From positions 1-61,494 of the IMG/VR virus record IMGVR_UViG_3300037470_000143: 61,494 nucleotides of DNA. The stretch is one strand, 5' to 3'. Of this stretch, positions 21,194 to 50,799 are shown piece by piece (position 1 is the first letter of the stretch; every line of letters begins with the position of its first letter). The DNA is from a virus. Its lineage: Duplodnaviria > Caudoviricetes. The notes beneath the pieces were generated by a model. That model did not search any database. It saw nothing but the letters and a program-made list of their open reading frames with translations, and had not been told where the DNA came from. Position numbers and translations under genes: made by a program.

Positions 21194-21946
21194 ATGACTG
21201 AACCGACCTGCTCGTTCTGCGGCCTCGTCGACAAAAGCCGCTGCCGCTCCGCCGAGCAGGCTGAGGACTGTCCCCACGCCCCGGTCGAGGGCAAGGGCCC
21301 CGTTGTGCGCTCAGGCCCGCTACGGGGGCTCAGGAGGGGGCACTACGGTGCGATCTACGCCGACGTCCCGTGGACCTTCCTCACGCGCTCCGAGAAAGGC
21401 CGTGGCCGGTCTCCTGACCAGCACTACGACGTAATGACGCTCGACGAGATCAAGGCGCTCCCGGTCGCGGAGCTGGCCGCCCCGGACTGCGCGCTGTTCT
21501 TCTGGGTGATCGACACGCATCTGGCCATGGCGCTCGATGTGATCGAGGCATGGGGCTTCACCTATAAGACGCGGGCCTTCTGCTGGGCCAAGCTCAATAC
21601 GAAGTTCTACTCCTACGAACCGACCCGGCAGCGGGCGGACAGCGACAGCGCGTGGAAGATGGGGAACGGTTTCTGGACCCGGGCCAACCCCGAGGACTGC
21701 TGGTTGGCCACGAGAGGCGCACCCAAGCGCCAGAGCGCCGCCGTGCGCCGTCTGATAGTCTCCCCCGTGCGGGAGCATAGCCGCAAGCCAGACGAGGCCA
21801 AGAACCGCATCGAGCAATTGGTGCCGGGGCCCTACGTTGAGCTGTTCTCTCGGTCGAACAGAAAAGGCTGGGATGCCATGGGTAACGAGCGCGGCAAATT
21901 CGATCCGCCTCCGGAGCTGGACGACGAAGCGATGGCCCTACTTTAG
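21194..21946 (+). CDS. MT-A70-family adenine methyltransferase
   Basis: IYADVPW (DPPW-like), LFFW, WGFTY, REHSRKP, ELFSR and GWDAMGNE. Confidence 0.9.
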   Translation: MTEPTCSFCGLVDKSRCRSAEQAEDCPHAPVEGKGPVVRSGPLRGLRRGHYGAIYADVPWTFLTRSEKGRGRSPDQHYDVMTLDEIKALPVAELAAPDCALFFWVIDTHLAMALDVIEAWGFTYKTRAFCWAKLNTKFYSYEPTRQRADSDSAWKMGNGFWTRANPEDCWLATRGAPKRQSAAVRRLIVSPVREHSRKPDEAKNRIEQLVPGPYVELFSRSNRKGWDAMGNERGKFDPPPELDDEAMALL

Positions 21947-22453
21947 CGGGTGGACCGTGAAGACGTTCGACAGGACCTTGTATCGCTTCACAGGGTCGAA
22001 CTCAGGGGATCGCATATCCCACGTAGCCACCAACCGGTAGGTCCCCGGCGGCACCACACACGGACGACCGATAAACCAGCTCCACGTTACGCTCGCCGGG
22101 TCTAGAGAATCATCCGGGTTGTAGAAATCCAGACCGGAGCCCACGCAGGAGGCAAGAAACCTCTCCCGATCTAGGCTCCCGTCGCGCCGCTCGACCTCGA
22201 CCGCCTTGAATCCCTGAAACGGGGTCTTGATCTCCCTGTCGTAGACGACGAGGGGGTCGTCCCCAACCTCGTGGTCCGGAACGAACAGCTCGGAGACCTC
22301 AAACCACTCTGTCGGAGGGATCGAATCGAATCGGTCTTGCTTCCCCTGCTCGATCCTGCTGGTCACTACGAAGACCACGAGGACAGCCAGAAGAAGCTCC
22401 CCGGTCCGGATTGACGTCCAGATGAACGACGATTTGTAGGACCTCTTGGTCAC
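21938..22453 (-). CDS. Hypothetical membrane-anchored protein, last gene of the late arm
   Basis: N-terminal TM LLLAVLVVFVV; coupled to the upstream gene. Confidence 0.75.
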   Translation of the reverse strand: MTKRSYKSSFIWTSIRTGELLLAVLVVFVVTSRIEQGKQDRFDSIPPTEWFEVSELFVPDHEVGDDPLVVYDREIKTPFQGFKAVEVERRDGSLDRERFLASCVGSGLDFYNPDDSLDPASVTWSWFIGRPCVVPPGTYRLVATWDMRSPEFDPVKRYKVLSNVFTVHPLK

Positions 22454-22743
22454 TGTCCCGCCCTTGCTGCGTTACGGATGAAATCTACGACGAAGTTCGC
22501 GCCGCCAGTCGCCCACCAGAAGGCGATCCCCCCTGCGACGAGGATGAGGATGTTACGCATGGACTGGATGACGGAGATGGCTGATTCCCATCGGCCATAG
22601 AAGGTGATCGCCCTGATGGCGACCTCTGATTCCTTGGGGTTCAGGGCGATGAGATGCCCCGTCTCTATCATGCGTCGAAGATGTGCGAGCGTCATCTGCT
22701 CCGTATCTTCGAGCTTCGAGGTATCGCCTTGCCCGAGAAACAC
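22450..22743 (-). CDS. Small membrane protein, holin/antiholin candidate
   Basis: TM ILILVAGGIAFWW; next to the spanins. Confidence 0.5.
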   Translation of the reverse strand: MFLGQGDTSKLEDTEQMTLAHLRRMIETGHLIALNPKESEVAIRAITFYGRWESAISVIQSMRNILILVAGGIAFWWATGGANFVVDFIRNAARAGQ

Positions 22744-22815
22744 TCTTTTGCCTCACCCAGTTCATCTGCTGGTAGAGTAAGCATAGTCGCTAGGGGGGTG
22801 TCACGCAATCAGCGA

Positions 22816-23070
22816 TCACAGCGTTTCGGTCTTCGGTCCGACGCAATGGCCCCTGTTCCGACACAGGTCTATAAACAAAGTTCGGTGGACCCCGACTTCG
22901 AGCCGGGTCTGCTTCGTGTCGGACGTGCTGGCCGTGGGGAGGGTCCGAGCGAGCTGAGCAAAGACCTCTCGCTCAGTCTTCTCTAAGGCCACCTGTGGCT
23001 CTGAGCAGTTCGTCAACATCAGGATTGTCGCCAATGCGGCGAAGGGTGTCTTCAGCGATACGACGGACAT
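22816..23070 (-). CDS. o-spanin (Rz1-like lipoprotein)
   Basis: Signal peptide with lipobox-like LTNC; overlaps the Rz-like gene in another frame. Confidence 0.7.
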   Translation of the reverse strand: MSVVSLKTPFAALATILMLTNCSEPQVALEKTEREVFAQLARTLPTASTSDTKQTRLEVGVHRTLFIDLCRNRGHCVGPKTETL

Positions 23071-23227
23071 CTTTGGCTCCCTCCATGTCTTGCTTCACAA
23101 AGTCGGCCGTGGTCGCTCTGACCCCAGCGTGATACCTCTCGTTCCCGAACCACCACAGGCCCGCCAGAGCGGCCGCCAAAAGGCCAAGGACGACCAAGGT
23201 CCGGGTGCTGAGCAGGCTTCCGATCAT
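22973..23227 (-). CDS. i-spanin (Rz-like)
   Basis: N-terminal TM followed by a periplasmic helix; directly after the endolysin. Confidence 0.7.
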   Translation of the reverse strand: MIGSLLSTRTLVVLGLLAAALAGLWWFGNERYHAGVRATTADFVKQDMEGAKDVRRIAEDTLRRIGDNPDVDELLRATGGLRED

Positions 23228-24213
23228 CGCTTCAGGTTCGCACCGTCGCGCGCGTCGTCAACACGGATGCTCCGGATCGAGTCCATGATCTTGCCACCGT
23301 AGAAGTAGCTGACCACACCGACCGCCCCAACGAGCAGGACGATCCAGTTGTCTAGCAGCGCCTGCTGGATCGCTGGGAGCGTGTCTGTGGCCTTCTGGGC
23401 TGCTTCCTTGGCGGTATCCAGCACGGAGCCGGTCGCGACAGCCACAGCGCCAAGCTTAGCCACTCTCTCGCCCCTGTCGGCCGTCTCTATGGTGCGCGAC
23501 CGGCGATCACGCAGATCGGATTCCGTGACGATCCGATCTGAACGAACAGGAGCGTCCATCAGGGCCCTCCATGTCATAGGCCCAACCACACCGTCGGTGG
23601 AGAGTCCTGCGTGATCTTGGAACGCCATCACGGCCGCCTTGGTGAGTGGACCGAAAGCCCCATCTAAAGCGCCGGAGAAGAACTTCTGTCGCTGCATCAA
23701 CGACTGGGCGTCGAGGACGAAGGCCCCCTTGTCGCCCTCTCTCAGTACCGGACGGCCGGTCTTCTGGTCCGGCTGTCCGCCATATCGACGAATACCGAGA
23801 AGTTTGCTGGTGGGGTATCTCTGATCGGATACCCTGTTGCCTTGGTTCCCACCACGGAGGATCATGTAGCCCCCTTCAAACCCGGCGAGGAAGGCGACGT
23901 GCCCCTGCCAGCCCTTGGGATCGCCCCGGGACAGGATAACGACGTCCCCGGGCTCGGCATCCTTCAGGCTGACGTGGGAGCCCCAGTCCAGATAGGACCG
24001 GGCGTTGAGCTTGCCTGTCCCTGACACACCGGCCTCGGCGAGAACGGCACCGACAAAGGCGGCGCACCACGGGGTTTCATCGTCCTTGACCCAGTCGTGA
24101 CCGGAAGTCTCGAAGAACCCGACCACGGTCGGGTTGTGCTTCGCCCCGGGCCACTCTTCGAGCCCGAGGTAGTTTCCGGCGATCTCAAGAAAGGCTGTGT
24201 TGTGGCCCGCCAT
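23224..24213 (-). CDS. Endolysin: TIGR02594/NlpC-P60-like peptidase plus peptidoglycan-binding domain and C-terminal TM
   Basis: DETPWCAAFV, GHVAF, GGNQ; DGAFGPLT...FQ...DGVVGPMT. Confidence 0.85.
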   Translation of the reverse strand: MAGHNTAFLEIAGNYLGLEEWPGAKHNPTVVGFFETSGHDWVKDDETPWCAAFVGAVLAEAGVSGTGKLNARSYLDWGSHVSLKDAEPGDVVILSRGDPKGWQGHVAFLAGFEGGYMILRGGNQGNRVSDQRYPTSKLLGIRRYGGQPDQKTGRPVLREGDKGAFVLDAQSLMQRQKFFSGALDGAFGPLTKAAVMAFQDHAGLSTDGVVGPMTWRALMDAPVRSDRIVTESDLRDRRSRTIETADRGERVAKLGAVAVATGSVLDTAKEAAQKATDTLPAIQQALLDNWIVLLVGAVGVVSYFYGGKIMDSIRSIRVDDARDGANLKR

Positions 24214-24278
24214 GTCTGCTGTCTCCCCGTGATGTTGCGCAACCGTAGCGCCCCCATCGTAACCTGTCTAGCACGAGG

Positions 24279-24494
24279 TCAAGCAGCGATAACCATCACA
24301 GCCCGTCGAGAGCCACCACCGGTTGCGGCCAGCTCTATGACGCAACAGACCTCGACCTGTGAAACGACTGATTCATCTGCCGCCCCCGACCCGTAAACAA
24401 CCGCAGCTGTTTCTATCTGAGAAACGACAGCCTCGTCTGCCGCCCCCGACCCATAAACAACCGCAGCTGTTTCTATCTGGGAAACATCGGTCAT
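24279..24494 (-). CDS. Small repeat-containing tail-associated protein
   Basis: VSQIETAAVVYGSGAADE twice; coupled to the upstream gene. Confidence 0.65.
   Translation of the reverse strand: MTDVSQIETAAVVYGSGAADEAVVSQIETAAVVYGSGAADESVVSQVEVCCVIELAATGGGSRRAVMVIAA
24361..24485. repeat. 60-bp tandem duplication
   Basis: 24361-24420 and 24421-24480 are nearly identical. Confidence 0.9.
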
Positions 24495-25498
24495 GTCCGG
24501 GCCCGCACTCCGGCCTCAATCGCATTGAAACCGCTTTCGGTCCACGCTGCTGCTGTGTCTGGGTCCGTTTCCCATACGTTGGATATGGGACTGAAACCAG
24601 CCTCTAGAGCGATGTCCCCGGAGAAGTAATTCGTCGTGCCGGACCGAACTGCGAGCTGGGCATTCAGGAGCGATCCGGAATTCGACAGAGCCCGGGCGTT
24701 CAGAACCACCGCTACCGGGGCGGCCCCGGTAGGTGCATCGGCCACGGTGCCGAGGAACAACTGGTCATTGGCGGTGGCCGCAAGGTAGTCCGCGTCGTCG
24801 GCAACACCTGCTTCATCCACGTCGGTATAGGCACCTGAATCGAAGGTGTTCGTGGTCCCCGCCCCCGTCGGGACGGACGGTTTGCAGCGAAGGTTGCGCG
24901 AGTCAGTCGTCGAAACAATAATCTGCGAAACGTCCAGATCATAGGAAATATTGGAAAGCGTACTCGGGCACCACAGTCGAATTCTGTCGATGGTGGTGGA
25001 AGAAGCCTTGATGGTGTCCCCAGAGAAGCTGGATACAAGCGAACCGTCTATGTAGATGTCGAAAGCACCTTCCGTATTATCCAGTTTCAACCGGATGTCG
25101 AGACGCGTTAGTGCCAGAACAGCTATGGTGACCCCTGTATACTGTGCAAAATCCCAAGTAGGACTTCCAGCGTCGGAAGTTGCGAGATAGACCCGCATTT
25201 CCCCGTTCACCATTTGGAGGCGAACAACGACGTTGTCGCCGGAATAAAAATCGACCCAGCCTCCGTCCGTGTTGGAGATGGTGGCCGACGGGTGATAGTA
25301 TTCAAAGTGGAACCAGAGTTCTGACTGCGCGGCAAAAACTGGTGTGTCCAGTCGTCCCCGGCTACCGTCGCTCCCGCTGGATGTAAGCCGAAGAGCGGCA
25401 CTGACATAGTCGCTATCGAACCGGCCCGCAGTGGCTTGGTCCGCAACGTTGGCGAAAGAGAATCCGGCAGTAGAGTTTCCCGCAAAAAGGATGGTCAT
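24491..25498 (-). CDS. Putative tail fibre/receptor-binding protein
   Basis: Beta-rich, lectin-like sequence; DPDTAAAWT end; tail context. Confidence 0.6.
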   Translation of the reverse strand: MTILFAGNSTAGFSFANVADQATAGRFDSDYVSAALRLTSSGSDGSRGRLDTPVFAAQSELWFHFEYYHPSATISNTDGGWVDFYSGDNVVVRLQMVNGEMRVYLATSDAGSPTWDFAQYTGVTIAVLALTRLDIRLKLDNTEGAFDIYIDGSLVSSFSGDTIKASSTTIDRIRLWCPSTLSNISYDLDVSQIIVSTTDSRNLRCKPSVPTGAGTTNTFDSGAYTDVDEAGVADDADYLAATANDQLFLGTVADAPTGAAPVAVVLNARALSNSGSLLNAQLAVRSGTTNYFSGDIALEAGFSPISNVWETDPDTAAAWTESGFNAIEAGVRART

Positions 25499-25501
25499 CG
25501 G

Positions 25502-26167
25502 TTATTCCTTCAAGATTGCTTTCAGGGAGATGGCGACACTTTCAAGAGTCCCATCGGCTGTCGCGGGTGCCACCAAGGTCAGGGAATCGCCGACGGCAAA
25601 GTCTGCGTCTGATGCTTGGGTAAACGTCCCTGTTGCCGCCGCAGCGAACTCACAGGTAGCGAACTCCACGCCGTTCTTCTGTAAGCTGAGGCTGACCGTT
25701 CCCGTGGACGCCGTCTCCGCATCTGCCTGCGCGCCGGGGGCGGACGCCGGGAGGGTGAACGGTCGCACCGCCATAAATTTCCCGACCAGCTCCGCATCGG
25801 TCATCACACCCGCTGCAAAAAAGCCGATGTCGTAGATCATGTAGGCTTCGATCCAGTTCGTACCCATGAAAGTGACGAAGCGGTCCTCGTCAACCACATA
25901 TGCCGTGTAGCCCTCGACCGGCGTGATGTTGACCCACGCCCCGTTGTCCCGGATGGCGATGTCCTCAGCGTCTACATCCCCTGTTGGGACGATGTAAATG
26001 TCCCCGTCTGAAGGAACCCCCGGAAGCGAGGTCGTGCGAGAGATCACTCGACACTGGACCAACCCCGACAAGGTCTGAAGGTTGGTGTCCATCCCGGACT
26101 TGTAGCCGGAACCGAGGTCCCAAAAAGCGGTCAGCCCGATACCGGGGACTGTGCGTTCTCCTGCCAT
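25502..26167 (-). CDS. DUF2793-domain tail protein
   Basis: PSDGDIYIV...IAIRDNGAW...PVEG..AYVVDE. Confidence 0.8.
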   Translation of the reverse strand: MAGERTVPGIGLTAFWDLGSGYKSGMDTNLQTLSGLVQCRVISRTTSLPGVPSDGDIYIVPTGDVDAEDIAIRDNGAWVNITPVEGYTAYVVDEDRFVTFMGTNWIEAYMIYDIGFFAAGVMTDAELVGKFMAVRPFTLPASAPGAQADAETASTGTVSLSLQKNGVEFATCEFAAAATGTFTQASDADFAVGDSLTLVAPATADGTLESVAISLKAILKE

Positions 26168-26170
26168 GGT

Positions 26171-26287
26171 CTAGCTCCCGTTTCCGTAGTCGTTGCCGTA
26201 GCTCTCGCCGTATCCGAATATCACTTCCAGACTGGCAGCGTAAGACATTTGCGCCATCATCAATATGAGGGTGTTGAGGTTCATCAT
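26171..26287 (-). CDS. 38-aa peptide ending in GYGESYGNDYG (not in the ORF track)
   Basis: Translated by hand: MMNLNTLILMMAQMSYAASLEVIFGYGESYGNDYGNGS; coupled on both sides. Confidence 0.6.
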   Translation of the reverse strand: MMNLNTLILMMAQMSYAASLEVIFGYGESYGNDYGNGS

Positions 26288-26565
26288 GCTGCACCCGAGG
26301 TCAGCACAGTGACGGTCTCGACCTGACCGATCGCTCGGCCCCAGACCTCGTCGACGCCACTCTCTAACCCTGTCAAGGGGAGCGTGGTCAGCATCTTCCC
26401 GTCGATCACGATACCAATCTCGCTCTCCGCGCCGGGATCATCGGCCGCGACCGCCACCCTGACGTAGCCTTGCCCGCCCATCTGGACGATGCAGCCAGTG
26501 ACATTCTCTGCGAGCAAGACCCACCCGGTCGTGACGCAATCCTTGGTGCTGGTTGTTCCTGACAT
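26284..26565 (-). CDS. Small beta-rich virion-associated protein
   Basis: GGAG RBS; tail operon. Confidence 0.7.
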   Translation of the reverse strand: MSGTTSTKDCVTTGWVLLAENVTGCIVQMGGQGYVRVAVAADDPGAESEIGIVIDGKMLTTLPLTGLESGVDEVWGRAIGQVETVTVLTSGAA

Positions 26566-26568
26566 GCT

Positions 26569-28824
26569 TTAAGCTCCTGTGCCGTAGCTCTCACCGTAGC
26601 CTACCCCATAGCCCCCGTCGACAAGAGTCAGCTGACGTTCGTAATATTGTAGCGATTCGAGTCCATCCCGCTCCGCCAGAACCTGAATTTTCACTTCGCC
26701 GTCCCCGTCGGTCGTGGGCCCCGACATCGGGACGTCGTAGCTCGTCCCCGTCAGCCCGGTATATTCCACGATCAGGTTCCCGTCGAGGTCAACGAACCGA
26801 ATGGTCGTCGTCTGTCCGTCCTCGGGTGTGACTGTTGCCTCATCCCAGTAGAGCGCAACCGTATCTTCGAGGGTCCTGTTTCGGTTCGCCCAAGTGACAG
26901 TGAACTCGGTAAAACCCGTCAAGTCGAAAGTGCCCCATCCACCATCAGCTTCGACCTTCACGTTCGCCGGGCGGAAGGGCAGGTGCGGGCGTTCCGAGAC
27001 GGAGTAAACCAGCTCGGTCGCATCGACCACGTCCAACACGCCGCTGATGGTCTTTGGCCGCAGCCAGTAGCTGACGTCGGCCCCCGCTGCGCGGAGGTTA
27101 GGGTCGGTGGACGCCGTCGAGGACGGCCGCAGATACCACAGCTCCGTGCCTGTGGACCAGTCGCGAGGAACTGTGTCGTAGATGCCCCGCTTGACCGTCC
27201 AAGCCCCAGCCCCGTAGCTCTTCAGCATGATGATCTCGTTGACGGAATCATCGGTCGAGTCGCCAAGGTAGAAGAGCTGCCCTGACGCCAGATCGGGCAT
27301 GGCCCCCACCATCGAGAACATGTCCGCATCTGCGATAGTGGACTCCGCTTCCGCAACGAGATCGGCAGACAACGCCCCGAAGGGTGTTTCGAGCATCCCG
27401 GCGTAGCTCTCTGTCACCGTGTCGCCCGCCGTGTTCACCCGCTCGGTGGTGAGCGTGAAGCTCTCCGTCGCGCTGTCGTCGTTCTGTCCGAGCAACACGA
27501 CGCGGGCGTCCGAGTATGTGGTCGTGGCCCCGAAAGCGGACAGGAAGGGGTAAGGAACCGTGATCGCACTCTGCTGATCGAAGGGTTCAGGAGCTGACAC
27601 CGGCACGGTCCAACTCGTAGTGGGAGGTGTCTCGAACTCCCCTTTGTCGAGCGACCAGATATCTTCTGTCACCGACAGAATCATCTTGCCGGAACCCTTC
27701 TTACCCTTGTCGATGTCGAGGACACGAACCGCCATGCTGGCGATCCCTTCTTCCGGCCAGACCAGCTCGACGACCTCCCCGGGAACGACCGGGCCTTGCG
27801 ACCTGTCCGTGATGATTTTGCAGCTGAACAGGGGGTAGCTCGCCTCGCGGATATCACGCTCTCCGAGGGTCCACGCATGGTCGGCTTTGCGGACCCCGTA
27901 GTAGTTCCGGCTGTCAGATTTGATCTGGCCGCTTTGGGCTGAGATGTTGGCAAGGTCCTGAAGAGTGACCGTGGCCTCTTCCTCGTTCTCCGGGTTGGTG
28001 TAGGTGATGACGATCTCGTTGATCGTGTCTTCGAGCGCCCGACGTTGCATGTCTTCGAGCGTGCAGTTGTCAGGATCGAAGGTCTTGGCCGAAGTCAGGT
28101 CGTAGTCATCCCGGAACAACTTGATCTCGATAAGGCCGGTCGTTGGATCAGTGTAGACCGCCGCTTGGATGTGGTCGAGGATTTCGGCGACGAACGCTTC
28201 GATCTCCCCCGGGCGCGTCCACATCATCGAGAGGCCGATCCCCTCATTGTAGATCGTCTCGGCTGCTGCCAGCCAGCTCGCCAGATTGAAGGCTGCGACA
28301 GGCCAACCCAGCCCCCAATCGGAGTTGGTGTAGACCTCGAAGACCATATGAACAGCGTTGCTGCCCCCATCCATACTGGCGTGGGCGTCGTTCAAGTTTG
28401 CGTGCTTGGAAATACGAGTGACCTTGACGTCAAGCGGCGAGATGAAGGGGTTGTTCTGCGCAACCATGAACCCCCGGCCGTTGGGGCCGTCGTGAAACCA
28501 AAGCGAGGCGATCCCCCGGTAGCCCGGGGCTGTGGCGCTGGTGAGTCCCAAGTACCCGGCAAGCTTGTCTGTAAGAACCTGCGCGGCCCCTCCGAGTAGG
28601 ACGTGGACTTTCCCGATCACACCACCTTCCGCATCATTCCCACCGAATAGCTCCGGAAGGTCGATGCTCAGTTCGCCATTCGAGTCGAGGGTGCCTGACC
28701 ACGCCACGTCCTCGCCTTTGAACCTGATCTCGTCGATGCTGTCGACCGGCCCCCAGCAGATGCCCCAGTGCATGTCGATGTGGTAGTCGATTACACGACG
28801 TTTGGCCCCACCTTTGCTACCCAT
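26569..28824 (-). CDS. Tail tip/central tail protein (lambda J/GTA megatron-like)
   Basis: GICWGPVD, PGYRG, putative phage-tail domain and VKRGIYDT. Confidence 0.85.
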   Translation of the reverse strand: MGSKGGAKRRVIDYHIDMHWGICWGPVDSIDEIRFKGEDVAWSGTLDSNGELSIDLPELFGGNDAEGGVIGKVHVLLGGAAQVLTDKLAGYLGLTSATAPGYRGIASLWFHDGPNGRGFMVAQNNPFISPLDVKVTRISKHANLNDAHASMDGGSNAVHMVFEVYTNSDWGLGWPVAAFNLASWLAAAETIYNEGIGLSMMWTRPGEIEAFVAEILDHIQAAVYTDPTTGLIEIKLFRDDYDLTSAKTFDPDNCTLEDMQRRALEDTINEIVITYTNPENEEEATVTLQDLANISAQSGQIKSDSRNYYGVRKADHAWTLGERDIREASYPLFSCKIITDRSQGPVVPGEVVELVWPEEGIASMAVRVLDIDKGKKGSGKMILSVTEDIWSLDKGEFETPPTTSWTVPVSAPEPFDQQSAITVPYPFLSAFGATTTYSDARVVLLGQNDDSATESFTLTTERVNTAGDTVTESYAGMLETPFGALSADLVAEAESTIADADMFSMVGAMPDLASGQLFYLGDSTDDSVNEIIMLKSYGAGAWTVKRGIYDTVPRDWSTGTELWYLRPSSTASTDPNLRAAGADVSYWLRPKTISGVLDVVDATELVYSVSERPHLPFRPANVKVEADGGWGTFDLTGFTEFTVTWANRNRTLEDTVALYWDEATVTPEDGQTTTIRFVDLDGNLIVEYTGLTGTSYDVPMSGPTTDGDGEVKIQVLAERDGLESLQYYERQLTLVDGGYGVGYGESYGTGA

Positions 28825-29054
28825 TATTCACCCTCGCGCGCAACGCGATCTCTCGCCGCCCTTGCAATCCGGTTACCGAGGGCATCGTTCAGGTCTTCCA
28901 CCGCCCCTACAGTATACTCCCCTGCGAGCATCTTCTTCACGGTCATGCCACGATGCTTCCCCCAGTTTGACATGCCCGCACCGCAAAAGCCGGAGACCCT
29001 AGCGTCGTTGGCCGTGATGACGATATCCCGGCCGGGGTCCCTCTCGCCGCTCAT
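28824..29054 (-). CDS. Small tail assembly protein
   Basis: GFCGAG...W motif; conserved Chi-like position. Confidence 0.75.
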   Translation of the reverse strand: MSGERDPGRDIVITANDARVSGFCGAGMSNWGKHRGMTVKKMLAGEYTVGAVEDLNDALGNRIARAARDRVAREGE

Positions 29055-29299: not shown

Positions 29300-29302
29300 G
29301 GT

Positions 29303-31893: not shown

Positions 31894-31896
31894 GGT

Positions 31897-41696: not shown

Positions 41697-41697
41697 G

Positions 41698-42114
41698 TCA
41701 CGGCACCGTGGTCCCGTCCGGGAGCAGCTTCCCGGACAGCTCTTCAAGTGATAGGGGCGTCACTTCGCAGGTGGTCGTAAGACCATCTGGGGGGCGCACC
41801 ATGTCGATGAAGTAGCCGACGATGTCTCCGACGTAGTTTAGCATGACCACCATCGAACCTCGGCCGATGTCGCGACCATCCAGTTCGGAGGTCTGGAATA
41901 TCATGCGGGTCGGTCGCTCGGCTGTCTCCGCGTAGCTGAGATTGGTCCCTGCGAGATCGCCGACGTTCTCAGCTTTGTCGTGGACGCGCACGGTGACTGT
42001 GTCGTCACCTACGGTGGGGGTGGCCGACGCCGTTTCATAGAAGATGCCCGGCAGAGAGAAGGTGTCATGCACCGTCTGCCGGGCTGCCTTCTTGGCGTCG
42101 GCCCAAGCAGTCAT
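41698..42114 (-). CDS. Head-tail joining protein
   Basis: KKAARQTVHDTF start; synteny. Confidence 0.7.
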   Translation of the reverse strand: MTAWADAKKAARQTVHDTFSLPGIFYETASATPTVGDDTVTVRVHDKAENVGDLAGTNLSYAETAERPTRMIFQTSELDGRDIGRGSMVVMLNYVGDIVGYFIDMVRPPDGLTTTCEVTPLSLEELSGKLLPDGTTVP

Positions 42115-42557
42115 CAGACCAGATCGTCCTCGGATTGGACCGAGGCCCAGATTTCATCGCGCTCAGCCGCCGAGACCTTGCCAGTCCCTTCGGGGAGGTC
42201 CGCGTTGATCGCCGCCACATCCGGGACGCCAGCGGCGGTCATGTCGGAGTCACCGAGACCACGCATGATCTCTTTGATCTTAGCGACACGGTCGTCACCT
42301 GCGAGACCAGTGGGGGCCTTGGGGGCCTTGGGGGCCTTGGGGGCCTTGGGGGCCTTGGGGGCCTTTTCCTCGGCCTTCTCCGGGGCAGGAGCAGGGGTCT
42401 CTTCTACGCCACCGCCAACCGATTTGGCTGCGCCGAGAGCGACCAGACGGGCCCCTTCCTTCTCTTCGATCTGGAAGTGGTATCCGGGTTCGACGTAGGT
42501 CGGCGGCTTCGGCTTCATGAGGATGCGATGGATCGCAACGTAGTTTTTCTTCGCCAT
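42114..42557 (-). CDS. Head-associated protein with a (KAP)6 linker
   Basis: GGAGA RBS before ATG 42557; directly after the major capsid gene. Confidence 0.75.
   Translation of the reverse strand: MAKKNYVAIHRILMKPKPPTYVEPGYHFQIEEKEGARLVALGAAKSVGGGVEETPAPAPEKAEEKAPKAPKAPKAPKAPKAPTGLAGDDRVAKIKEIMRGLGDSDMTAAGVPDVAAINADLPEGTGKVSAAERDEIWASVQSEDDLV
42312..42365. repeat. 9-bp in-frame tandem repeat, six copies
   Basis: GGGGGCCTT units encoding KAP on the - strand. Confidence 0.9.
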
Positions 42558-42655
42558 GAGGGTTCTCCTATAGGCAGGGTCAATGAGGTCTCGGGTCGGA
42601 GACCGGGCTAAACCTCGGGAGGAATCAGGCGGCCCGGTCTCCGGTTTGTCGAGGC

Positions 42656-43726
42656 TTACGGTGCCGCGACGACGGTCGCCTTCAGCGAGCCGTTGGGCGA
42701 CATCGGCACCATCAGGGGGGCCGACTGCGTCATGACGAACGTGACCGACGGGTCTTGATCGTTCCACATCTTCGGGAACATCGAGAGCGGCTGGAAGTTC
42801 GCCTCGGTGTCCTGAATCGCGCCAAAGCAGCGAACACCGTTGATACCCGGCCCGGTCAGGACGATGTCCTGCGGAGACATGAACTCGGTGACGGTCCCGT
42901 CCGCCAGCTCGTAGTAGTCGCTGTAGACATATACCTCCATGGTGCCGCTGATCTTGCCGACGTATTCAACGTCGAGACCTTCCAGCACCCCGAGGTTCAG
43001 GTTCATGCCATTGTTCTGGGCGCGGTAGTCCGCGTTCAGAAGTTCCTTCAGCTCCGTGTCGGTCCGCATCACATCCCAGACATCAGTGCCTACGGTGATG
43101 CGATTCGGAGCGCCACCGTGCTTCGCCCGACGCATCAGCTTCTTCCAGTCTTCCAGCAGGCCGATGATCGACACGCCAGAATCACCCCAGAAGTTCGACG
43201 AGGTCAGGGTAATCGTATGACCTGCCGCACGCTGGAAGTCGACGACCGTGCGGGGGTAGCGGTCATCTTCCAGAGTTACGGACCCGTCTTGGATCGCCTC
43301 TGAAGCCAGCCACTCCCAGCGGCGCTCGATAGCCCGGCGGTGCTGTCGCAGAATGTCCGCGACGATAGCCATGTAGCGCATCTGCGGCGACATGGCCGGT
43401 GCGTCCGGAGCCAGCTCGCCATAGCCCGCCACACGGCGAATGACGCGCGTGGCAGTCACCGGGTCCTTGGGCTTGACGTATGCGGGCTTGACCCGGTTCA
43501 CCTGCTCGGCGGCCGAGTAGATCGGCACACCTTGCGCGGTGGGGACCACCAGCGGCGCGATCTTGCGGTTTTCTTGGATGCGGCCGAAATCGACAAATTC
43601 GTCGTCGAACTGCACTTCGCTGCCGAAGAAGCTCAGCCAGTAATTCGACGGCGGCTCCATCATGTCACGATCCCGGATGACGCCGAGCAGCGTCGAGGTA
43701 TCGTAGAGGGTTGCTCCGATGCTCAT
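42656..43726 (-). CDS. Major capsid protein (lambda gpE-like)
   Basis: IAPLVVP..QG, KPAYVKPK, VDFQR and MTQSAPLMVP. Confidence 0.92.
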   Translation of the reverse strand: MSIGATLYDTSTLLGVIRDRDMMEPPSNYWLSFFGSEVQFDDEFVDFGRIQENRKIAPLVVPTAQGVPIYSAAEQVNRVKPAYVKPKDPVTATRVIRRVAGYGELAPDAPAMSPQMRYMAIVADILRQHRRAIERRWEWLASEAIQDGSVTLEDDRYPRTVVDFQRAAGHTITLTSSNFWGDSGVSIIGLLEDWKKLMRRAKHGGAPNRITVGTDVWDVMRTDTELKELLNADYRAQNNGMNLNLGVLEGLDVEYVGKISGTMEVYVYSDYYELADGTVTEFMSPQDIVLTGPGINGVRCFGAIQDTEANFQPLSMFPKMWNDQDPSVTFVMTQSAPLMVPMSPNGSLKATVVAAP

Positions 43727-43803
43727 GGAAGGATTCCTTTCTAGTTTATCCCTACCTCAATTGGCCCAACCCACAGGGTGCGGGTTGGGCTTGCGAACCG
43801 GCC

Positions 43804-44619: not shown

Positions 44620-44662
44620 GTTGGTTCTCCTGCATTATTTTTCGGGGGTGGGACGGGCGGCC

Positions 44663-46039
44663 TTAGTGGGACGCCTGCTTCCGGGGTTTACCAGTCATGG
44701 CAGCGAGCGCGCCCAGCATCTGCTCGCTGGTCGCGGCTTCTTCGGAACTGCCCTCGGGTTGCGCGCCGACATCCGGGTTGCCACTGCCCTCCATGGCTTG
44801 ATTGAAGCCTGTCGGTTGCGCGCCCGAGGCGGGCGGGGTCTGGCCTTGCGGCTCGCTGGGGGTTTCCTCGGCCTTCTCTTCGGGAAGGGTGGCGAGAAAC
44901 GCCGTAGCCTGCTCAACCGAGAGATCGGTTTTCAGGGCCGCGCCAAGGGCTGCCCGGGGACGGGCCTTGCCTTCGTCACTGTCGAGGATCGCGTTGATGC
45001 GGGTCCTCTCCGCAGCAGCGCCTTCCGCCTGACCAGCTGCTGTGGCGGTTTCAACCGCCGCGTCCATCTGTTCCTGCGTGATCTGGGTCTGGCCGTCACC
45101 GTTGGCGGCCGGAGGGGTGTTGGTGGGCTTCGTAGCCATGAATTCACTCTCCTGTGCGTCGGCCTCTTCTGCGAAGACAGCCATCTCTTCCTCAAGGGCC
45201 CCGATACGGTCGGCAAAGCCAACCTCAATCGCATCGGAGCTATCATATGTCAGCGCCTCGGTGTCCCGAACCTCCGACTCTTCCATATCGCGGTTTGTTG
45301 CCACCAGAGCGACGAACTCCCCGTAGATACGGTCGACTCTTGTCTGGATACGCGCTTTTGCGCCGTCCGACAACTTCTCGTATTGATTCCCTTCAACCTT
45401 GTGCTTCCCAGCATAGATGAAGGTGACCTTGATGCCCCATTCTTTCAGCATCTCCGACATCTCGACGTGGGCCACGACAACCCCCACAGAGCCGACGCCC
45501 CCTGAGCGCGTCATGATGATTTGGGAGGCGGCCGACGAGATCGAGTAGGCAGCAGAGTAGGCGTGGTCGGCCGCGAATGCCCTGATGGGCTTCTCCCCAC
45601 GGCGGGCCGTGACTTTCTCGACAAGCTCGAAATTGCCCGCAACCTCGCCGCCGGGGCTGTCGACGACAAACGCAATGGCCTTGACCTGTGGGTCTTCCAT
45701 GCCGCGATTGAACGCCTTCTCGATGTACGTGTAGCCGGTTGCCCGGCGACCGAACTGAAAGCTGAAATGGTGGAGCAAAACCCCGAACACCGGGATTTGT
45801 AGCACACCGTTCTGGACGTTATAGGGACGGAAAGCCGATACCCATGGGTCATCCTCATCCCAGAAATCGTCGTCATCCTGCATCTGGGTCTTGGAGGCAT
45901 CGTAGCACTCCATGAACTCGTCGTTCGCAGCCAACTCTTGGAGGTAGGCGGAGAACATTGTCTCCGCCCCCTGCGCCAACAGGAGGGGCTGATCGGTGAT
46001 TGCTGAGATCAGGCTATTCTGTGTCTTCGGACCCGGCAT
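44663..46039 (-). CDS. S49-family prohead protease/scaffold
   Basis: VDSPGGEVAG, AYSAAYSI, GSVGVV and AGKHKVEGN; low-complexity C-terminus. Confidence 0.92.
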   Translation of the reverse strand: MPGPKTQNSLISAITDQPLLLAQGAETMFSAYLQELAANDEFMECYDASKTQMQDDDDFWDEDDPWVSAFRPYNVQNGVLQIPVFGVLLHHFSFQFGRRATGYTYIEKAFNRGMEDPQVKAIAFVVDSPGGEVAGNFELVEKVTARRGEKPIRAFAADHAYSAAYSISSAASQIIMTRSGGVGSVGVVVAHVEMSEMLKEWGIKVTFIYAGKHKVEGNQYEKLSDGAKARIQTRVDRIYGEFVALVATNRDMEESEVRDTEALTYDSSDAIEVGFADRIGALEEEMAVFAEEADAQESEFMATKPTNTPPAANGDGQTQITQEQMDAAVETATAAGQAEGAAAERTRINAILDSDEGKARPRAALGAALKTDLSVEQATAFLATLPEEKAEETPSEPQGQTPPASGAQPTGFNQAMEGSGNPDVGAQPEGSSEEAATSEQMLGALAAMTGKPRKQASH

Positions 46040-47702
46040 TCTTCTCGCCCTCCTGCTCATCTTCTCTCGGCGAGCCGGAGGCGGCGTTCACGCTGTTGTC
46101 CTCCAACAGCACGATGTTCCGATCTTCCATCTCTTTCTGCTCGCGTTCTTTTTGGGCGAAAACCTTGCGCCAGTCTTTCCCCAGCTTAGCCAGCTCGTCC
46201 TCGTGAGTCGACAGACCATATTTGATCCTGAGAACGGCCGCCTGCGTTTCCTTCAGCTCGTCAATCTGCCCGCGCGATGCGCCGATCCAGTCAGCTTTGG
46301 AGAGCGCGTCGAACATCATGTTCTGGTGGCCGTTGGTGTAGAGGATCGCGGCTTCGGACGCCCTGAAGGTTTCCAGCCGGTCGTTGTTGATCGCCTCTTC
46401 GAGCCACAACCTAAAGACCGTGTTAGCCATCTCGTCGGCCACGGTCTTCTTCCGGCTCTGCATGAAGCGCCACGTCTGAAGCATGGCTGCCCGGGCCGAG
46501 CTGTAGGTCGTCTTGGTGAAGTCCCTCGACAGTTCTTCGTAGCTGACATTCAGGGACGCAGCGACGTACCTGAGTAGGCTCTGCTCGAAGTCCTGTCCAA
46601 CGCCCCCGGGTGTCCCTGCGGGGGTCATGTTCAGTTTCGTGCCGGGAAACAGGTGCGGAACCTTGACGCCGTCGATCCGCATGTTCTTCGCACTGCCAAC
46701 ATACTCGTTGACCGCCGACAGGTAAGCCGAAGCATACTGCTGAACCGCGTCGGAGATGTTCCCCCCGCCCATCTGCTGATAGACGACATCGCTTGGCAGC
46801 TCGCTTTCGATGGAGGCCGCGTAGGTCGCATTCACCACCGCGTTCTGAAGGGTCACGTCGCGAAACTTCCGGATGATCGCCATCTCCCTGAGACCGGCGG
46901 TGATGTCGGAAACAGCTCGGGTCTGGTCGACCCTCATCTGCTCACGGATATGGATCACCTGCTTGCGACCCCAAGGCTTGTTGAACCCGACCTGCTTGAA
47001 GTCATTCATCGGAACCGCGAACACACCAAAGTCGGTCGGATGCCGGGTCCGGATGTAGGCAGACACAGGTGCGCCGTAGGCGTCATGCCGGATGCCGCCA
47101 CGGACGCGAGGATCGTTGGCAAACTCCCACGGAGTCTGAAGCCTGTCCGCGTCTACCATCTGGATCGCAGTCGCATACTCGCGTCGGTTCTGGCTCAGCC
47201 ACTCGGCCGTGGCCAGCACTTCGCCGCCGAAGGTGTAGACCCCGACGCAGAGCCGGATCATGGCGGTCAGGTCGTTCTGTCGGGCCGCGTCCACCCACTT
47301 GTGGGGGCTCTCGGCCCAGAGCATGAACTTCTCTTCGACCTCCTGCTGGAACTTCTCGGCCCATTCGTCACTCCGGCCGAGAACATTGTTCATCGGCTTC
47401 GAATTAAGCAGATACATGTGGCCGACGACGCTGTCTTTGTGCAGCGTTCCGCCTCCCGCGATGTATGCGTCGTTCCGGGACAGATCACGCGCACGAGCGT
47501 CAAGAATACGCTTCTCCGGAATCATGTCCTTGTCGGCAGATTGGAGCGGCGGGCTCCACGTTGTCATGCTCTTCTCGAACACGGCCGCACCGTCGTAGGC
47601 CCCCGTGAAGGCCATCTCGCGATACTGGGGACCAACAAGCTCGCTGATAGAATCCGCGAGGTCCATCTGCTCCGGGGTCACGATCTGGGGCATGGTCGTC
47701 AT
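46014..47702 (-). CDS. Portal protein, lambda family
   Basis: ARARDLSRND, QTRAVS, SYEELSRD...YSSARA and IDELKE. Confidence 0.93.
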   Translation of the reverse strand: MTTMPQIVTPEQMDLADSISELVGPQYREMAFTGAYDGAAVFEKSMTTWSPPLQSADKDMIPEKRILDARARDLSRNDAYIAGGGTLHKDSVVGHMYLLNSKPMNNVLGRSDEWAEKFQQEVEEKFMLWAESPHKWVDAARQNDLTAMIRLCVGVYTFGGEVLATAEWLSQNRREYATAIQMVDADRLQTPWEFANDPRVRGGIRHDAYGAPVSAYIRTRHPTDFGVFAVPMNDFKQVGFNKPWGRKQVIHIREQMRVDQTRAVSDITAGLREMAIIRKFRDVTLQNAVVNATYAASIESELPSDVVYQQMGGGNISDAVQQYASAYLSAVNEYVGSAKNMRIDGVKVPHLFPGTKLNMTPAGTPGGVGQDFEQSLLRYVAASLNVSYEELSRDFTKTTYSSARAAMLQTWRFMQSRKKTVADEMANTVFRLWLEEAINNDRLETFRASEAAILYTNGHQNMMFDALSKADWIGASRGQIDELKETQAAVLRIKYGLSTHEDELAKLGKDWRKVFAQKEREQKEMEDRNIVLLEDNSVNAASGSPREDEQEGEKNAGSEDTE

Positions 47703-47703
47703 G

Positions 47704-47949
47704 TCACATCATCCATGGTTTCAGTGGCCCACAGACCGTTTTCTTGCCCAAGGCAATCTTCAGCTCTTCGATGTAAGCTCGGAGACGTTGTGCGTTCCCT
47801 GCGGTGAACTCGACGCGCTCCCCGTTACTCTCGACCACCACGCGAGCGTGGCCCCCGATCAAAAGCTTGTGGAGCGCAGATTCGGCTTCGGCGAGGTTCG
47901 CGGTGTAGGTGGCGGTCTCTTCTGCTGTCAGGGTCGATGTCGCCATCAA
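47704..47949 (-). CDS. Head completion protein (gpW-like)
   Basis: AESALHKLLIG...GERVEFT...LRAYIEEL. Confidence 0.85.
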   Translation of the reverse strand: MMATSTLTAEETATYTANLAEAESALHKLLIGGHARVVVESNGERVEFTAGNAQRLRAYIEELKIALGKKTVCGPLKPWMM

Positions 47950-47956
47950 TGCTGCC

Positions 47957-50086
47957 TCATGCTAAATCTGCGGCGAGGTCTGAGAGCGACCTTTTTCCTG
48001 CCTCCGCTGTGAAAGGTTTATCGGATATTTTTGGATCGAAAACAAGATCGTTCCTGTCCCACTGGTCCGCCCAGCCGGGGGGGTCCTCAAAATTGATGTG
48101 TTCCAAGCCAATGCTCGGTGTCAGCGTCCCTGCAATACAGTAGGCCAGAAGGTCCCAGCTTTCATTCCGGAAGTTATTGGGATTTTCCCAGATGTTCTTC
48201 ACGGGATTCTTAACCTCTACCGTCAGCTCAATGAAGAAATTGTCATCCAACCAGTCGGGGAATTCGATCTGTCCACCGGGGTCGGTCCGGTTAAGCATGT
48301 TGTCGAGCGTGTCCTTAATGAGATTTGTGTTCATGAACAGCACGGGGATTTCCCCACGGGCTCCGGCGGTCCGGTCTTTCCGTTGACTGTCGGGGAAACC
48401 GAGCTTCACCCGGGGGTGTTCCTTTGTCGACGCCCCTTTCAGCAGGGTGAACTTCCCTGCCAGACCCGGCTGCCACTCGTATTCGCCTTCTTCCGCGCCT
48501 TCGTCCTGTTCCTCGGGATCGCCCCAACGCAACCAGCGATAGAAGTTATAAGCGTTGGCCGTCACGCCCGCCCGGCCCCCAGAGTCCGCAAAGGTATGCT
48601 TGACGGCCATCTGACGTCCAGAGCCATCCCCCAGATCGTAGGTCTTCACGATGACCTCTTCAACTAGTAGCTTCCAGTCCTCGGCATACGCCCCGGGGTT
48701 GACCCATGACATGCCGCCCGCGACCTTGTCCTCCCTCTTCGACTTCTGGATATCGAAACGGTCGATCACGACGATATCCCGAGTGCGCGTGATCCCGTGG
48801 ACCTGCACGACGAAACGGTGCTTTTGGATATCCACCGTGGCGATCAGGAACCTGACGTTCGACGGAACGGTCTTGTGGCCCCGATTCTTGGCCCTCGCCT
48901 TCAGCGCCTCCGGCACCCGATCCGACGACAGGCCCTTCGGGACGTATGCTTCGCCCTGATCGGTGTTGACGGTGGCCTTCAGTGACTCTTCGTTCTTCGT
49001 TCGGTCATATTCCCTGAGCGCTGACAGGTAGTTGAATACCAAAGTCTTCCAGTCAGAGAAAGCAGCCGCCACCCCTTTGATCCAGAAACTGGCTATGGAC
49101 GAGCGCGGTGGGGACCCGTGGATATTGCCGTCTTTGTCGATGGTGCAGTAGTCCGGAACCCACATGCCTGTCTGGTTGAGCATGTGCTTGCCCGGGCGGC
49201 CATCTCTTGGATCGTGGTTGTATTGCGCAGCACAATGGGGGCATTCGAGGTAGACACTCTCGGCCGCTTCCATGAGGTCTTCGCTCTCTGTCCAGCGGAG
49301 CAGATCGAACGCAGGCTCGAACCAGTCGTAGCAGTCGACACACTGCCAATACCAGCGCCTTCGGTCGCCTTGGTTGTAGATCGCGAGGATGCCCTGAGTC
49401 GGGGGTGCCTCATGCCGGGACCCCCTCACCCACTTCGGATTGTCGACGGTGAAGCCGGGGCTGCTCTCGGCCGCGCACATGCCGTTTGATCGGAAGGTGG
49501 TAGCCCGTTTCCGTGACAGGAAGAATGGCGATCCCTCGCCGTCCACGTCCTGTTGCATCCGGTCATAATCCGTCAGCCATAGGCGCGGAATCGGCTTGCC
49601 TGAAAGTTCGTTGATTGTCGGCCAGCTGAGGGTCAACAGCATTCCGGATCGGTAAGTCTTGTCGAACGTGTTGTTGGCCTGCTTGGTGTTCAGCAGGCGC
49701 TCCCCGATCCGGGGGCTGTGCCGGTGAAGCCTGTCGATCCGGCGCATCGAGAAGTCGCGGGCCGTGGTCTGCGAGGTCTGGATCAACATCATGTCAGCCG
49801 GATCACAAATCGCGCTGTATCCCAGCCAGTTCGGGAACATGTCGGTTTTGCCACACTGAGCGGGGCCGGCGAAGACCATCCCAGTGAACCGCCAACTGGT
49901 CAGGACGTTCATCGGTTCGACCAGATAGGGCGTGGTCGAGTTCTTCCACGGGCCGACGTACGCCCCGGGGTTGTTGATGTAGCGGTATTCCTCGGCCGCC
50001 TCCGAGACCGTCATACGCTTGGCAGGACGGATGGCCTCGGCCGCGTCGGCGATCATGGCCTCTAAAGAGCCGAAAGGCATCGACAT
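47957..50086 (-). CDS. terL: Terminase large subunit (GpA family)
   Basis: GPW.NSTTPYL.EPM, AQCGKT, GDRRRWYWQC, TVDIQ and NESWDL. Confidence 0.93.
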   Translation of the reverse strand: MSMPFGSLEAMIADAAEAIRPAKRMTVSEAAEEYRYINNPGAYVGPWKNSTTPYLVEPMNVLTSWRFTGMVFAGPAQCGKTDMFPNWLGYSAICDPADMMLIQTSQTTARDFSMRRIDRLHRHSPRIGERLLNTKQANNTFDKTYRSGMLLTLSWPTINELSGKPIPRLWLTDYDRMQQDVDGEGSPFFLSRKRATTFRSNGMCAAESSPGFTVDNPKWVRGSRHEAPPTQGILAIYNQGDRRRWYWQCVDCYDWFEPAFDLLRWTESEDLMEAAESVYLECPHCAAQYNHDPRDGRPGKHMLNQTGMWVPDYCTIDKDGNIHGSPPRSSIASFWIKGVAAAFSDWKTLVFNYLSALREYDRTKNEESLKATVNTDQGEAYVPKGLSSDRVPEALKARAKNRGHKTVPSNVRFLIATVDIQKHRFVVQVHGITRTRDIVVIDRFDIQKSKREDKVAGGMSWVNPGAYAEDWKLLVEEVIVKTYDLGDGSGRQMAVKHTFADSGGRAGVTANAYNFYRWLRWGDPEEQDEGAEEGEYEWQPGLAGKFTLLKGASTKEHPRVKLGFPDSQRKDRTAGARGEIPVLFMNTNLIKDTLDNMLNRTDPGGQIEFPDWLDDNFFIELTVEVKNPVKNIWENPNNFRNESWDLLAYCIAGTLTPSIGLEHINFEDPPGWADQWDRNDLVFDPKISDKPFTAEAGKRSLSDLAADLA

Positions 50087-50799
50087 TACAGCAGCTCCAT
50101 CGCTTCGTCGTCCAGCTCATCTGGGTCCTCGTCTGGGTCCTCGTCGGCCAACAGTGGGATGCGCATGTTATCGGGGATTTCGTCGATCTGAGAGCCTGTG
50201 GAATTTTCCTTGGCCTGCCTGACCATAGCGTCGAACAGCTCCTGCTGCATCCCGTCGACCATCTCCTGAAGCAGCTCGCGCTGCTCATCGCTGAGCCCGG
50301 TCAGACGCTCGATGGTTTCCGGCCATAGCTGCATGGTGAACTTGAGGTTCTGGAAAGTCCGTGACAGGACTTCCCAGACCTTCTCGGTTCGCCAGAGGTC
50401 CCCGGCGTTTTCCTCGAACTTCTGTTTCTTCAGCAGGGCGTCCCAGTAGGCCGTCGAGATCGCCGGTGGCAGGTCCTCGCGCTTCAGGCGGGAGATCAGC
50501 ATCTTGGCGTCGATCTCGGTCTCGACGAGGAACTTGGCGGCCGTCGCGAGGTCGTAGAGATGCTGCACCTGTGTCGTGCCCCGGCGGCGCGATTCGTGGA
50601 TAGGGCAGTTCACCAATCGCCTCTTCACGGCCGCGTTGTCCATCCGGAAGACCTGCGCAAGAAAACTGACCGTAACGCCCTGTAGCGCACTGTCCGCGAG
50701 CCCGTTCATCGAAAGCTGGGTGGAGGACCCCTCGCGTTTCTCGCGGACGTGGGCTGCTAACCTATCCCCCGGACCTAGTTCTCGCTCCTGCTTCGTCAT
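50086..50799 (-). CDS. terS: Terminase small subunit (DUF1441-like)
   Basis: Directly upstream of terL; N-terminal wHTH; AYWDA...FEENAGDLWRT. Confidence 0.8.
   Translation of the reverse strand: MTKQERELGPGDRLAAHVREKREGSSTQLSMNGLADSALQGVTVSFLAQVFRMDNAAVKRRLVNCPIHESRRRGTTQVQHLYDLATAAKFLVETEIDAKMLISRLKREDLPPAISTAYWDALLKKQKFEENAGDLWRTEKVWEVLSRTFQNLKFTMQLWPETIERLTGLSDEQRELLQEMVDGMQQELFDAMVRQAKENSTGSQIDEIPDNMRIPLLADEDPDEDPDELDDEAMELL

Follow-up and report, generated by a model that had tools for sequence, protein, structure and literature searches.

The virus record IMGVR_UViG_3300037470_000143 (Duplodnaviria; Caudoviricetes) of the IMG/VR database, analyzed here over its whole length of 61,494 nucleotides and referred to below as the window, encodes a predicted DNA methyltransferase (methylase) and a small terminase subunit (TerS) that end in almost the same peptide. 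The sequence GAGCTGGACGACGAAGCGATGG is found in exactly two copies, at positions 21914 to 21935 on the plus strand and 50097 to 50118 on the minus strand, and represents the sole exact inverted pair of 22-mers in the window. Each copy encodes the residues ELDDEAM plus the opening base of the codon that follows, the left copy in the methylase tail and the right copy in the tail of TerS. The methylase (21194 to 21946, plus strand) terminates in FDPPPELDDEAMALL and TerS (50086 to 50799, minus strand) in DPDELDDEAMELL, each directly followed by the stop codon, so that the final decapeptides, ELDDEAMALL and ELDDEAMELL, share 9 of 10 residues. The repeat can be lengthened to 32 nucleotides at 88% complementarity, with its arms 28,141 nucleotides apart (pair I3). 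The interval is occupied by the head, tail, and endolysin-like genes, with the gene for the large terminase subunit (TerL) adjoining that for TerS, and the left copy lies where the plus- and minus-strand arms of the genome meet. This layout, along with the identities of the three genes, had been proposed in a sequence-only reading of the same DNA, and all of it holds: the repeat is exact and unique, the translations agree, and the Pfam and PHROG matches confirm the methylase, TerS, and TerL. In dinucleotide-preserving shuffles, 0 of 100 gave any 22-mer match, even with 2 mismatches permitted.

The window phage is Chi-like (Casjensviridae), and its record is rated 100% complete by CheckV; the sequencing run that contains it in full comes from a sediment metagenome. 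Among named phages, Synechococcus virus S-ESS1 (Casjensviridae) is the closest, with TerL DNA that is 70% identical and a methylase that is 54% identical to those of the window; Chi, DSS3-P1, and Sano, all Chi-like, are remoter relatives. The order of the genes matches the usual order in the family. The plus arm (about 900 to 21946) contains nucleotide-metabolism and small genes, with the methylase gene as the last one. The minus arm, which runs from 57399 down to 21938, begins with genes for an exonuclease, a protein that binds single-stranded DNA (SSB), a DNA polymerase, a VRR-NUC-like endonuclease, and an SNF2 helicase, followed by TerS, TerL, the head and tail genes, an endolysin-like gene, and three small open reading frames (ORFs). 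A codon-usage gene caller yields 73 predicted proteins in the window, whose functions were assigned by matches to PHROGs and Pfam profiles.

The methylase is a 250-residue protein of the MT-A70 family (PF05063, residues 52 to 232, E value of 6.6e-22; phrog_359, E value of 6.2e-78), scoring 78.7 bits against a curated cut-off of 23.9. Its fold stops near residues 232 to 237, after which come a linker and the tail. In a low-confidence AlphaFold2 model, residues 235 to 250 have a predicted local distance difference test (pLDDT) score below 50 and include a short helix at 244 to 249. The stop codon (21944 to 21946) overlaps that of a convergent ORF (21938 to 22453, minus strand) by 9 nucleotides, within the tail codons, an arrangement also found in the genome G002. 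The convergent ORF, the last gene of the virion/lysis arm, codes for a 171-residue protein with no Pfam or PHROG match. A remoter group of MT-A70 proteins (L030, L032, L034, L036, L037, L040, and L043) contains a different conserved C-terminal extension, ending in IPDFLRIGHPACSWRSPLE, without the acidic hydrophobic tail.

TerS consists of 237 residues and belongs to the DUF1441 family (PF07278, residues 43 to 192, E value of 1.5e-10; phrog_141, E value of 1.9e-35); a DUF1441 search of control genomes returned no match. Both tails thus lie beyond the Pfam domain limits, at 232 of 250 residues in the methylase and 192 of 237 in TerS. The TerS tail is preceded by a floppy acidic linker, DEDPDEDPD, which at the DNA level (50119 to 50146, minus strand) is a direct repeat of two copies of GACGAGGACCCAGA that is not found in L124 or L125. 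The AlphaFold2 model of TerS, likewise of low confidence, shows helices up to residue 198, a floppy stretch at 199 to 229 (pLDDT below 50), and a helix at 231 to 236. The tail accordingly sits past the helical core, as do the TerL-binding elements of the lambda and P22 type. These monomer models were used for the floppy ends only, and solved relatives of TerS and TerL were looked for and none was found. TerL (47957 to 50086, minus strand; 709 residues) is of the gpA type (GpA_ATPase, E value of 1.5e-65; GpA_nuclease, E value of 2.8e-53; phrog_15, E value of 2.3e-203). It is encoded directly downstream of TerS, with a start codon that overlaps the TerS stop codon (TAATG), and the GGAG within the sequence ATG-GAG may be the terL ribosome-binding site.

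Many TerL homologues, including P0216, P0219, and P0224, are much longer (about 1,030 to 1,100 residues), and in these the match to the query is split near residue 80, adjoining a nearly invariant Lys80 (TerL alignment A3, 50 rows). The TerL of G005 (G005:6325-9480) is such a protein, with 1,051 residues. To judge from the alignment, the long relatives look like carriers of an intein-type insertion.

Similar C termini are found throughout both protein families. Among the 89 TerS homologues with E values of 1e-10 or better, the final residues are LI in 56, LL in 12, and LV in 8 (76/89), nearly always after acidic residues, and the corresponding numbers for the best 120 methylase homologues, also after acidic residues, are 59, 26, and 17 (102/120). 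The closest relatives in IMG/VR have methylases ending in DLDDEALALL and DLDDEALDLL and TerS proteins ending in GLDEEALDLL and ELDDEALDLL. In these relatives the synonymous codons vary, with GAC GAC GAA versus GAT GAx GAG and CTG CTC versus TTG CTA. Since the peptide is conserved and its codons are not, selection acts on the peptide rather than on the DNA, which also speaks against a site of the pac, cos, or operator kind. The tail common to the methylase and TerS is, by these comparisons, a selected and conserved peptide.

Two types of tail can be recognized in this clade. Type A is polyacidic and ends in F/Y/I-x-D-L-I, as in DDDFSDLI of TerS and EAEIEDLI of the methylase, and type B has the form LD[D/A]EAxxL[L/I]. 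A search of 14 predicted proteomes with the motif [LIM]D[DAE][EDT][AET]..L[LIV] finds only three occurrences, all of them C-terminal: in the window methylase, in the window TerS, and in the methylase of G004. A type B tail is absent from all 48 SSB homologues. Type B is a private variant, restricted to the methylase and TerS. The two proteins of a genome mostly have tails of the same type. Both are of type B in the window and of type A in S-ESS1 (EAAEIEDLI in the methylase and DDDFADLI in TerS), G002 (EEAEIDGLL and DDFSDLI), G005 (LAGIEDLI and DDYSDLI), and G010 (EEAEIDDLI and DDDFADLI); G004 combines a type B methylase (ILDAEALSLL) with a type A TerS (DDDDEFGGLI). In a probable further pair, TerS ends in GLDAEAQELI, the methylase in ILDAEAQALI, and the SSB in DDDDLI. 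Compared with the window, this pair has three changes that are common to both tails and retains the E/A difference at the third-last residue. A metagenome scan for methylase relatives yielded short contigs only and contributed no methylase-TerS pairs.

The phylogenies of the protein bodies, with the tails removed, differ between the two families. In a quick TerS tree, type B is found mostly in one clade (13 of 19 rows; Shimodaira-Hasegawa-like approximate likelihood ratio support of 98), a few members of which have reverted. The body of the G004 TerS is 81% identical to that of the window, with an unrelated tail. In the methylase trees, type B appears at two distant places, namely a clade of 10 rows, 6 of which are type B, and the window with P0094, nested in a clade of 68 type A rows. 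An approximately unbiased (AU) test, run after the FastTree tree had been seen, rejects a single origin of the type B methylases (log-likelihood difference of 193.5; p-AU of 2.1e-5). The type B tail has therefore been placed on unrelated methylase bodies, either from the resident TerS or through recombination that retained the end of an older resident methylase. The proposal of the sequence-only reading that the methylase had borrowed its tail from TerS gains support from these trees, since the variant is native to the TerS clade of the window and is found in two unrelated methylase lineages.

The identity of the two copies in the window extends to silent sites. All 6 degenerate codons of ELDDEA are the same in the two genes, for which codon usage alone, given the same peptide, yields P = 0.0082. 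By comparison, the orthologous methylase or TerS genes of the closest relatives have 55 to 65% identical codons at conserved residues. Moreover, both window genes contain a derived GCG-ATG where four related sequences have GCT-CTG. The silent-site identity and the shared derived bases point to a recent event in the window, most simply explained by gene conversion with a tract of about 22 nucleotides. With its own exonuclease and gp2.5-like annealing protein, the phage has the means for such an event, and these proteins, or template switching, probably drove the conversion. What is new in this work is the private variant, together with its passage to unrelated gene bodies and the evidence that gene conversion keeps the two copies alike.

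The sequence-only reading had treated the tail as a property of TerS and the methylase. This does not stand, because kindred tails are found on the SSB, the primase-helicase, the exonuclease, and other proteins of the same phage. The archetype of the set is the gp2.5-like SSB/annealing protein of the DUF2815 type (55106 to 55759, minus strand; phrog_112, E value of 2.2e-39), which ends in DDDYGGDDSLI; all 48 of its homologues end in [LMV][ILV] after a run rich in Asp and Gly. On the same strand, the exonuclease (55775 to 57037; phrog_69, E value of 9.7e-70) ends in DEPDEPESLI and a 113-residue protein (57058 to 57399; phrog_408) in GDDPFGDDDDLM, with DDDDLM as its last residues. Three more carriers are encoded on the plus strand: the 942-residue primase-helicase (57832 to 60660; phrog_256, E value of 3.4e-169, and phrog_9765, E value of 1.6e-79), with DSEDEDLI; a 227-residue protein of no recognized family (17945 to 18628), with GDDEDDDLI; and a 109-residue protein (19269 to 19598; phrog_4212), with EEEDFDDLI. 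A weaker member, ending in SEDDLV, is the head-module protein whose gene comes immediately downstream of that for the major capsid protein (42114 to 42767, minus strand). At the same position, Chi encodes gp18 (AEDEV) and DSS3-P1 encodes gp55 (GEDLLG). The window gene for this head-module protein also contains, at 42302 to 42373, a nine-base unit, TGGGGGCCT, repeated about 8 times.

LI endings are found in 6 of the 73 window proteins, a number reached in 0 of 5,000 null draws. A looser tail rule, which was drawn up after the tails had been seen, picks out 10 of the 73 proteins compared with 0.70 expected (P = 2e-9), one of them doubtful (19516 to 19857, ending in KDRLI). The endings are specific to the lineage. 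In Chi, 8 of 72 proteins end in DEV (0 of 5,000 null draws), and these include the primase, the SSB, two exonucleases, an NinC-like protein, TerS, and the head-module protein. DSS3-P1 has LLG on 4 proteins and LLA on 3; G002 has DLL on 4 of 64 proteins and LL or LI on 10; and G006 (56,734 bases) and G007 (58,279 bases) have LI on 7 proteins each, among them the SSB and the SNF2 helicase. Both the SSB and the primase-helicase are tailed in the window, S-ESS1, Chi, DSS3-P1, and G002. In G006 (11900 to 13414) and G007 (44632 to 46146), the SNF2-type helicase encoded just upstream of terS carries the tail LEDLI and TerS does not, the opposite of the window. The tail of the methylase and TerS is, by these counts, one variant of a phage-wide set with lineage-specific endings. 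In the limited collection of literature that was searched, no paper on such tails of terminases or methylases was found.

The reading that we favor, with a probability of about 0.6, is that both 22-nucleotide copies encode one C-terminal docking peptide and owe their identity to recent gene conversion. The tail would consist of an acidic stretch and a short amphipathic end, L-D-D-E-A-M-x-L-L-COOH, displayed after a floppy linker, and each carrier would plug into a common socket on one partner. The tail-coding ends of the methylase and TerS genes would have been homogenized by the recent conversion, as in concerted evolution, and the 22-nucleotide repeat would be neither an inversion switch nor a mark of a site in the DNA.

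As for the socket, the phage DNA polymerase or the groove of the SSB would come first, with TerL less likely. The polymerase is a tentative candidate, matched by the chance that the socket is something else altogether; the SSB groove appears less probable, and TerL is at best level with the groove. The polymerase (52606 to 54771, minus strand) is of family A (phrog_17, E value of 1.5e-98), has no tail of its own (it ends in KVFKKD), and is a candidate socket by analogy with T7 gp5. In T7, the tail of gp2.5 contacts the polymerase and the helicase (PMC5686142, PMC10359462). For the DUF2815 SSB of phage Enc34, a crystal has been described in which the acidic C terminus inserts into a β-sheet groove of the neighboring SSB (PMC5686142). 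A socket on the polymerase or the SSB would draw the methylase to phage DNA that is being synthesized or processed and would bring TerS to the same place.

Several points weigh against this docking and conversion reading. Docking as such rests on analogy and on the lineage-wise covariation of the endings. The G004 pair, with its type B methylase and type A TerS, is a counterexample to strict tail matching. The probable further pair was put together heuristically and is presumed to come from one genome, and the methylase and TerS of 3300048587 are on separate contigs of one sample. The structural models are poor, with mean pLDDT values of 56.8 for TerS and 53.2 for the methylase. The case for conversion is built on 6 degenerate codons and the two derived bases that both genes contain, and recombination that retained the tail of an older resident methylase could account for part of the tree conflict. 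The loose tail rule is post hoc, and the crude enrichment test is not significant in Sano, G001, G004, and S-ESS1. Of these genomes, S-ESS1 contains genes that are split, the completeness of G004 is 64%, and G001, which has poor gene calls, was excluded from the synteny and tail counts. In the S-ESS1 record (L001), the helicase/primase, polymerase, and tape-measure genes are found in overlapping pieces (e.g., 484 to 3325, 6638 to 8753, and 22687 to 27025), and these look like frameshift errors that depress the tail counts of that genome.

A more elaborate form of the docking and conversion reading is, in our judgment, improbable, though worth stating. LD[D/A]EAxxL[L/I]-COOH would be a private address that is reinstalled on each newly acquired methylase gene, and gene conversion, recurring over the 28-kb distance, would keep it identical to that of TerS. 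The methylase and TerS would alternate on a single socket, provided by TerL or by some other factor of packaging or replication, and methylation would thereby be wired to the start of packaging.

Of the alternatives, the one that survives best, although it is unlikely, is the first inference of the sequence-only reading, that the methylase copied the TerS tail and docks on TerL, so that methylation is coupled to packaging or gated by it. A precedent for linking the two processes is phage P1, where Dam methylation of pac controls the initiation of packaging. The presence of the private variant on TerS and the methylase, and not on the SSB, fits this idea, and so does the variant being old in the TerS clade and found on unrelated methylase bodies, as expected with TerS as the donor. 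In lambda and P22, the C-terminal regions of TerS bind TerL, according to a review (PMC9611059). However, the tail set is broader than TerS and the methylase, which undercuts the argument that a tailed TerS implies TerL binding. In Chi, S-ESS1, G002, G005, and G010, TerS ends like the SSB-type tails of its own phage, so the TerS tail alone is no pointer to TerL. The N termini of TerL are almost identical in the window, with ELDDEAMELL on TerS, and in G004-type phages, with DDDDEFGGLI. Their conservation extends to lineages with no hydrophobic tail on TerS (e.g., SQPEGDET), two of which are G006 and G007, where seven proteins but not TerS are tailed. Across the window, the G004-type phages, and the tail-less lineages, no covariation was seen between the TerS tail and the TerL N terminus. 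The G004 methylase, moreover, retains the variant although its TerS has lost it, and methylation in the course of fast translocation would be kinetically doubtful. By these comparisons, TerL docking appears somewhat weakened as a mechanism.

Slightly less probable still is the idea that the tails are DNA-mimicking, self-inhibiting tails or C-terminal degradation tags and that the identity of the methylase and TerS tails is a by-product of conversion. Self-inhibiting tails of the DNA-mimicking kind have been proposed for T7 gp2.5 and T4 gp32, and hydrophobic C-terminal ends resemble the recognition tags of proteases. Every carrier of known function handles DNA, which agrees with self-inhibition. 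Removal of the tail from the Enc34 SSB changed its selectivity for DNA (PMC5686142). Against this idea, five to ten unrelated proteins per phage agree in their last two or three residues, which shift in concert from lineage to lineage (DEV, LLG, DLI), as predicted for one common reader and not for tails that fold back separately on their own proteins.

The second inference of the sequence-only reading, in which the 28-kb virion module inverts at the repeat and terL comes to lie behind the methylase gene, with the repeat as either substrate or scar of the event, is very improbable. Its geometry is right: the inverted copies are in frame, and a crossover within the 22 nucleotides would swap only the final ALL for ELL, so that both ORFs would indeed stay open, as had been claimed. 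What finds no support is the inversion itself, with only one orientation found in the relatives and in the contig of the source run. The order SNF2-TerS-TerL-Ad1, along with a methylase gene that converges on the far end of the virion arm, is kept in S-ESS1, G002, G004, and G005, and the adjacency of terS and terL is also found in Chi, DSS3-P1, and Sano. In X1, the probable source run, the left junction is spanned by a single contig of 15,937 bases. Its arrangement is that of the reference, with neither a joint nor a loose end at 21914 to 21935, and contigs cannot reveal rare isomers. The Logan contigs were compared over 20900 to 22900, of which the runs X2 to X4 cover scraps only. No match to an invertase, recombinase, or integrase PHROG was found among the 73 window proteins, several of which have no match at all. 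An inversion would also part terS from terL and cut the virion genes off from their upstream operon. Finally, two other accounts are together about as improbable as the inversion: a match that arose on an ordinary acidic tail by chance or through codon bias, and a pac/cos or operator site that happens to lie in two genes. Many proteins have acidic tails, and the preferred codons include GAC, GAG, and CTG, but the shuffles and the codon test speak against chance, the motif is found nowhere else in the 14 proteomes, the relatives keep the peptide and not the nucleotides, and the annotated cos ends of Sano are far from terS.

Several other repeats are found in the window. Between the genes at 4165 to 5091 and 5659 to 6264, a 20-nucleotide unit, TGCCCGGCCGCCTCTGCCCC, is present in six head-to-tail copies (5273 to 5429); this array contains no called gene and has inverted matches at 2811 to 2831. 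Near the right end of the record, positions 60979 to 61012 and 61262 to 61295 form a 34-nucleotide inverted repeat (88%) of GGAACACC-like words with 249 nucleotides between them, which could be a regulatory or end-related site. The word (A)AGGAAACGACCATG is conserved across the ribosome-binding site and start codon of four plus-strand genes, at 914 to 943, 2427 to 2456, 4139 to 4168, and 6546 to 6564 (repeat families D7 and D8). Two tandem copies of a 60-nucleotide sequence, 87% alike, are found at 24352 to 24471 and overlap a small gene called at 24279 to 24494.

If one socket reads all of these tails, it would be a central organizer of the infection cycle in a large family of phages (Casjensviridae and their relatives), and the tails would provide a simple handle for pull-downs. 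With about ten carriers, the device reaches past replication into DNA modification and packaging. The methylase-TerS pair provides a clear example in which a short linear motif moved between unrelated genes and was then homogenized over 28 kb, and it hints at a common address for methylation and packaging. It also illustrates that a striking inverted repeat around an entire module need not be an inversion switch.

Invertible phage segments bounded by inverted repeats are known from the G segment of Mu and the C segment of P1. These resemble the window in having in-frame inverted repeats at the ends of genes, with ORFs that are open both ways. The window differs from them in the lack of an invertase match and of a second orientation in relatives or contigs, as well as in the size of the segment, 28 kb with the whole virion module. 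Hub-and-motif systems offer another parallel: the C-terminal tip of the Escherichia coli SSB meets the pockets of many clients, and β-clamp-binding motifs are found on many clients of the clamp. Here, too, a short peptide would serve as the common currency of proteins engaged in DNA transactions. The topology would be clamp-like, with many tails and one presumed socket, but the motif is off the clamp consensus, and no clamp was recognized among the 73 window proteins scanned.

Like TerS of the window, lambda gpNu1 and P22 gp3 have a flexible C-terminal part past the oligomerization core (PMC9611059). Unlike in lambda and P22, the extreme tail of the window type is also found on nonpackaging proteins, is absent from TerS in some lineages, and switches type between close relatives without a change in the TerL N terminus. 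Enc34 ORF6 belongs to the same SSB family as the window protein encoded at 55106 to 55759 (phrog_112, with PF10991 precomputed for homologues), and its groove is one socket that has been seen experimentally, but only as a crystal contact between SSB copies (PMC5686142). A further similar system is that of T7, where the SSB gp2.5 and the primase-helicase gp4 are likewise unrelated proteins with acidic tails and a hydrophobic last residue. T7 has two such carriers compared with about ten here, which include TerS, the methylase, the exonuclease, and the head-module protein. In T7 the endings are Phe and the partner is the gp5 polymerase, whereas the window tails end in L-I or L-L, and a private subvariant on just two carriers is found only here.

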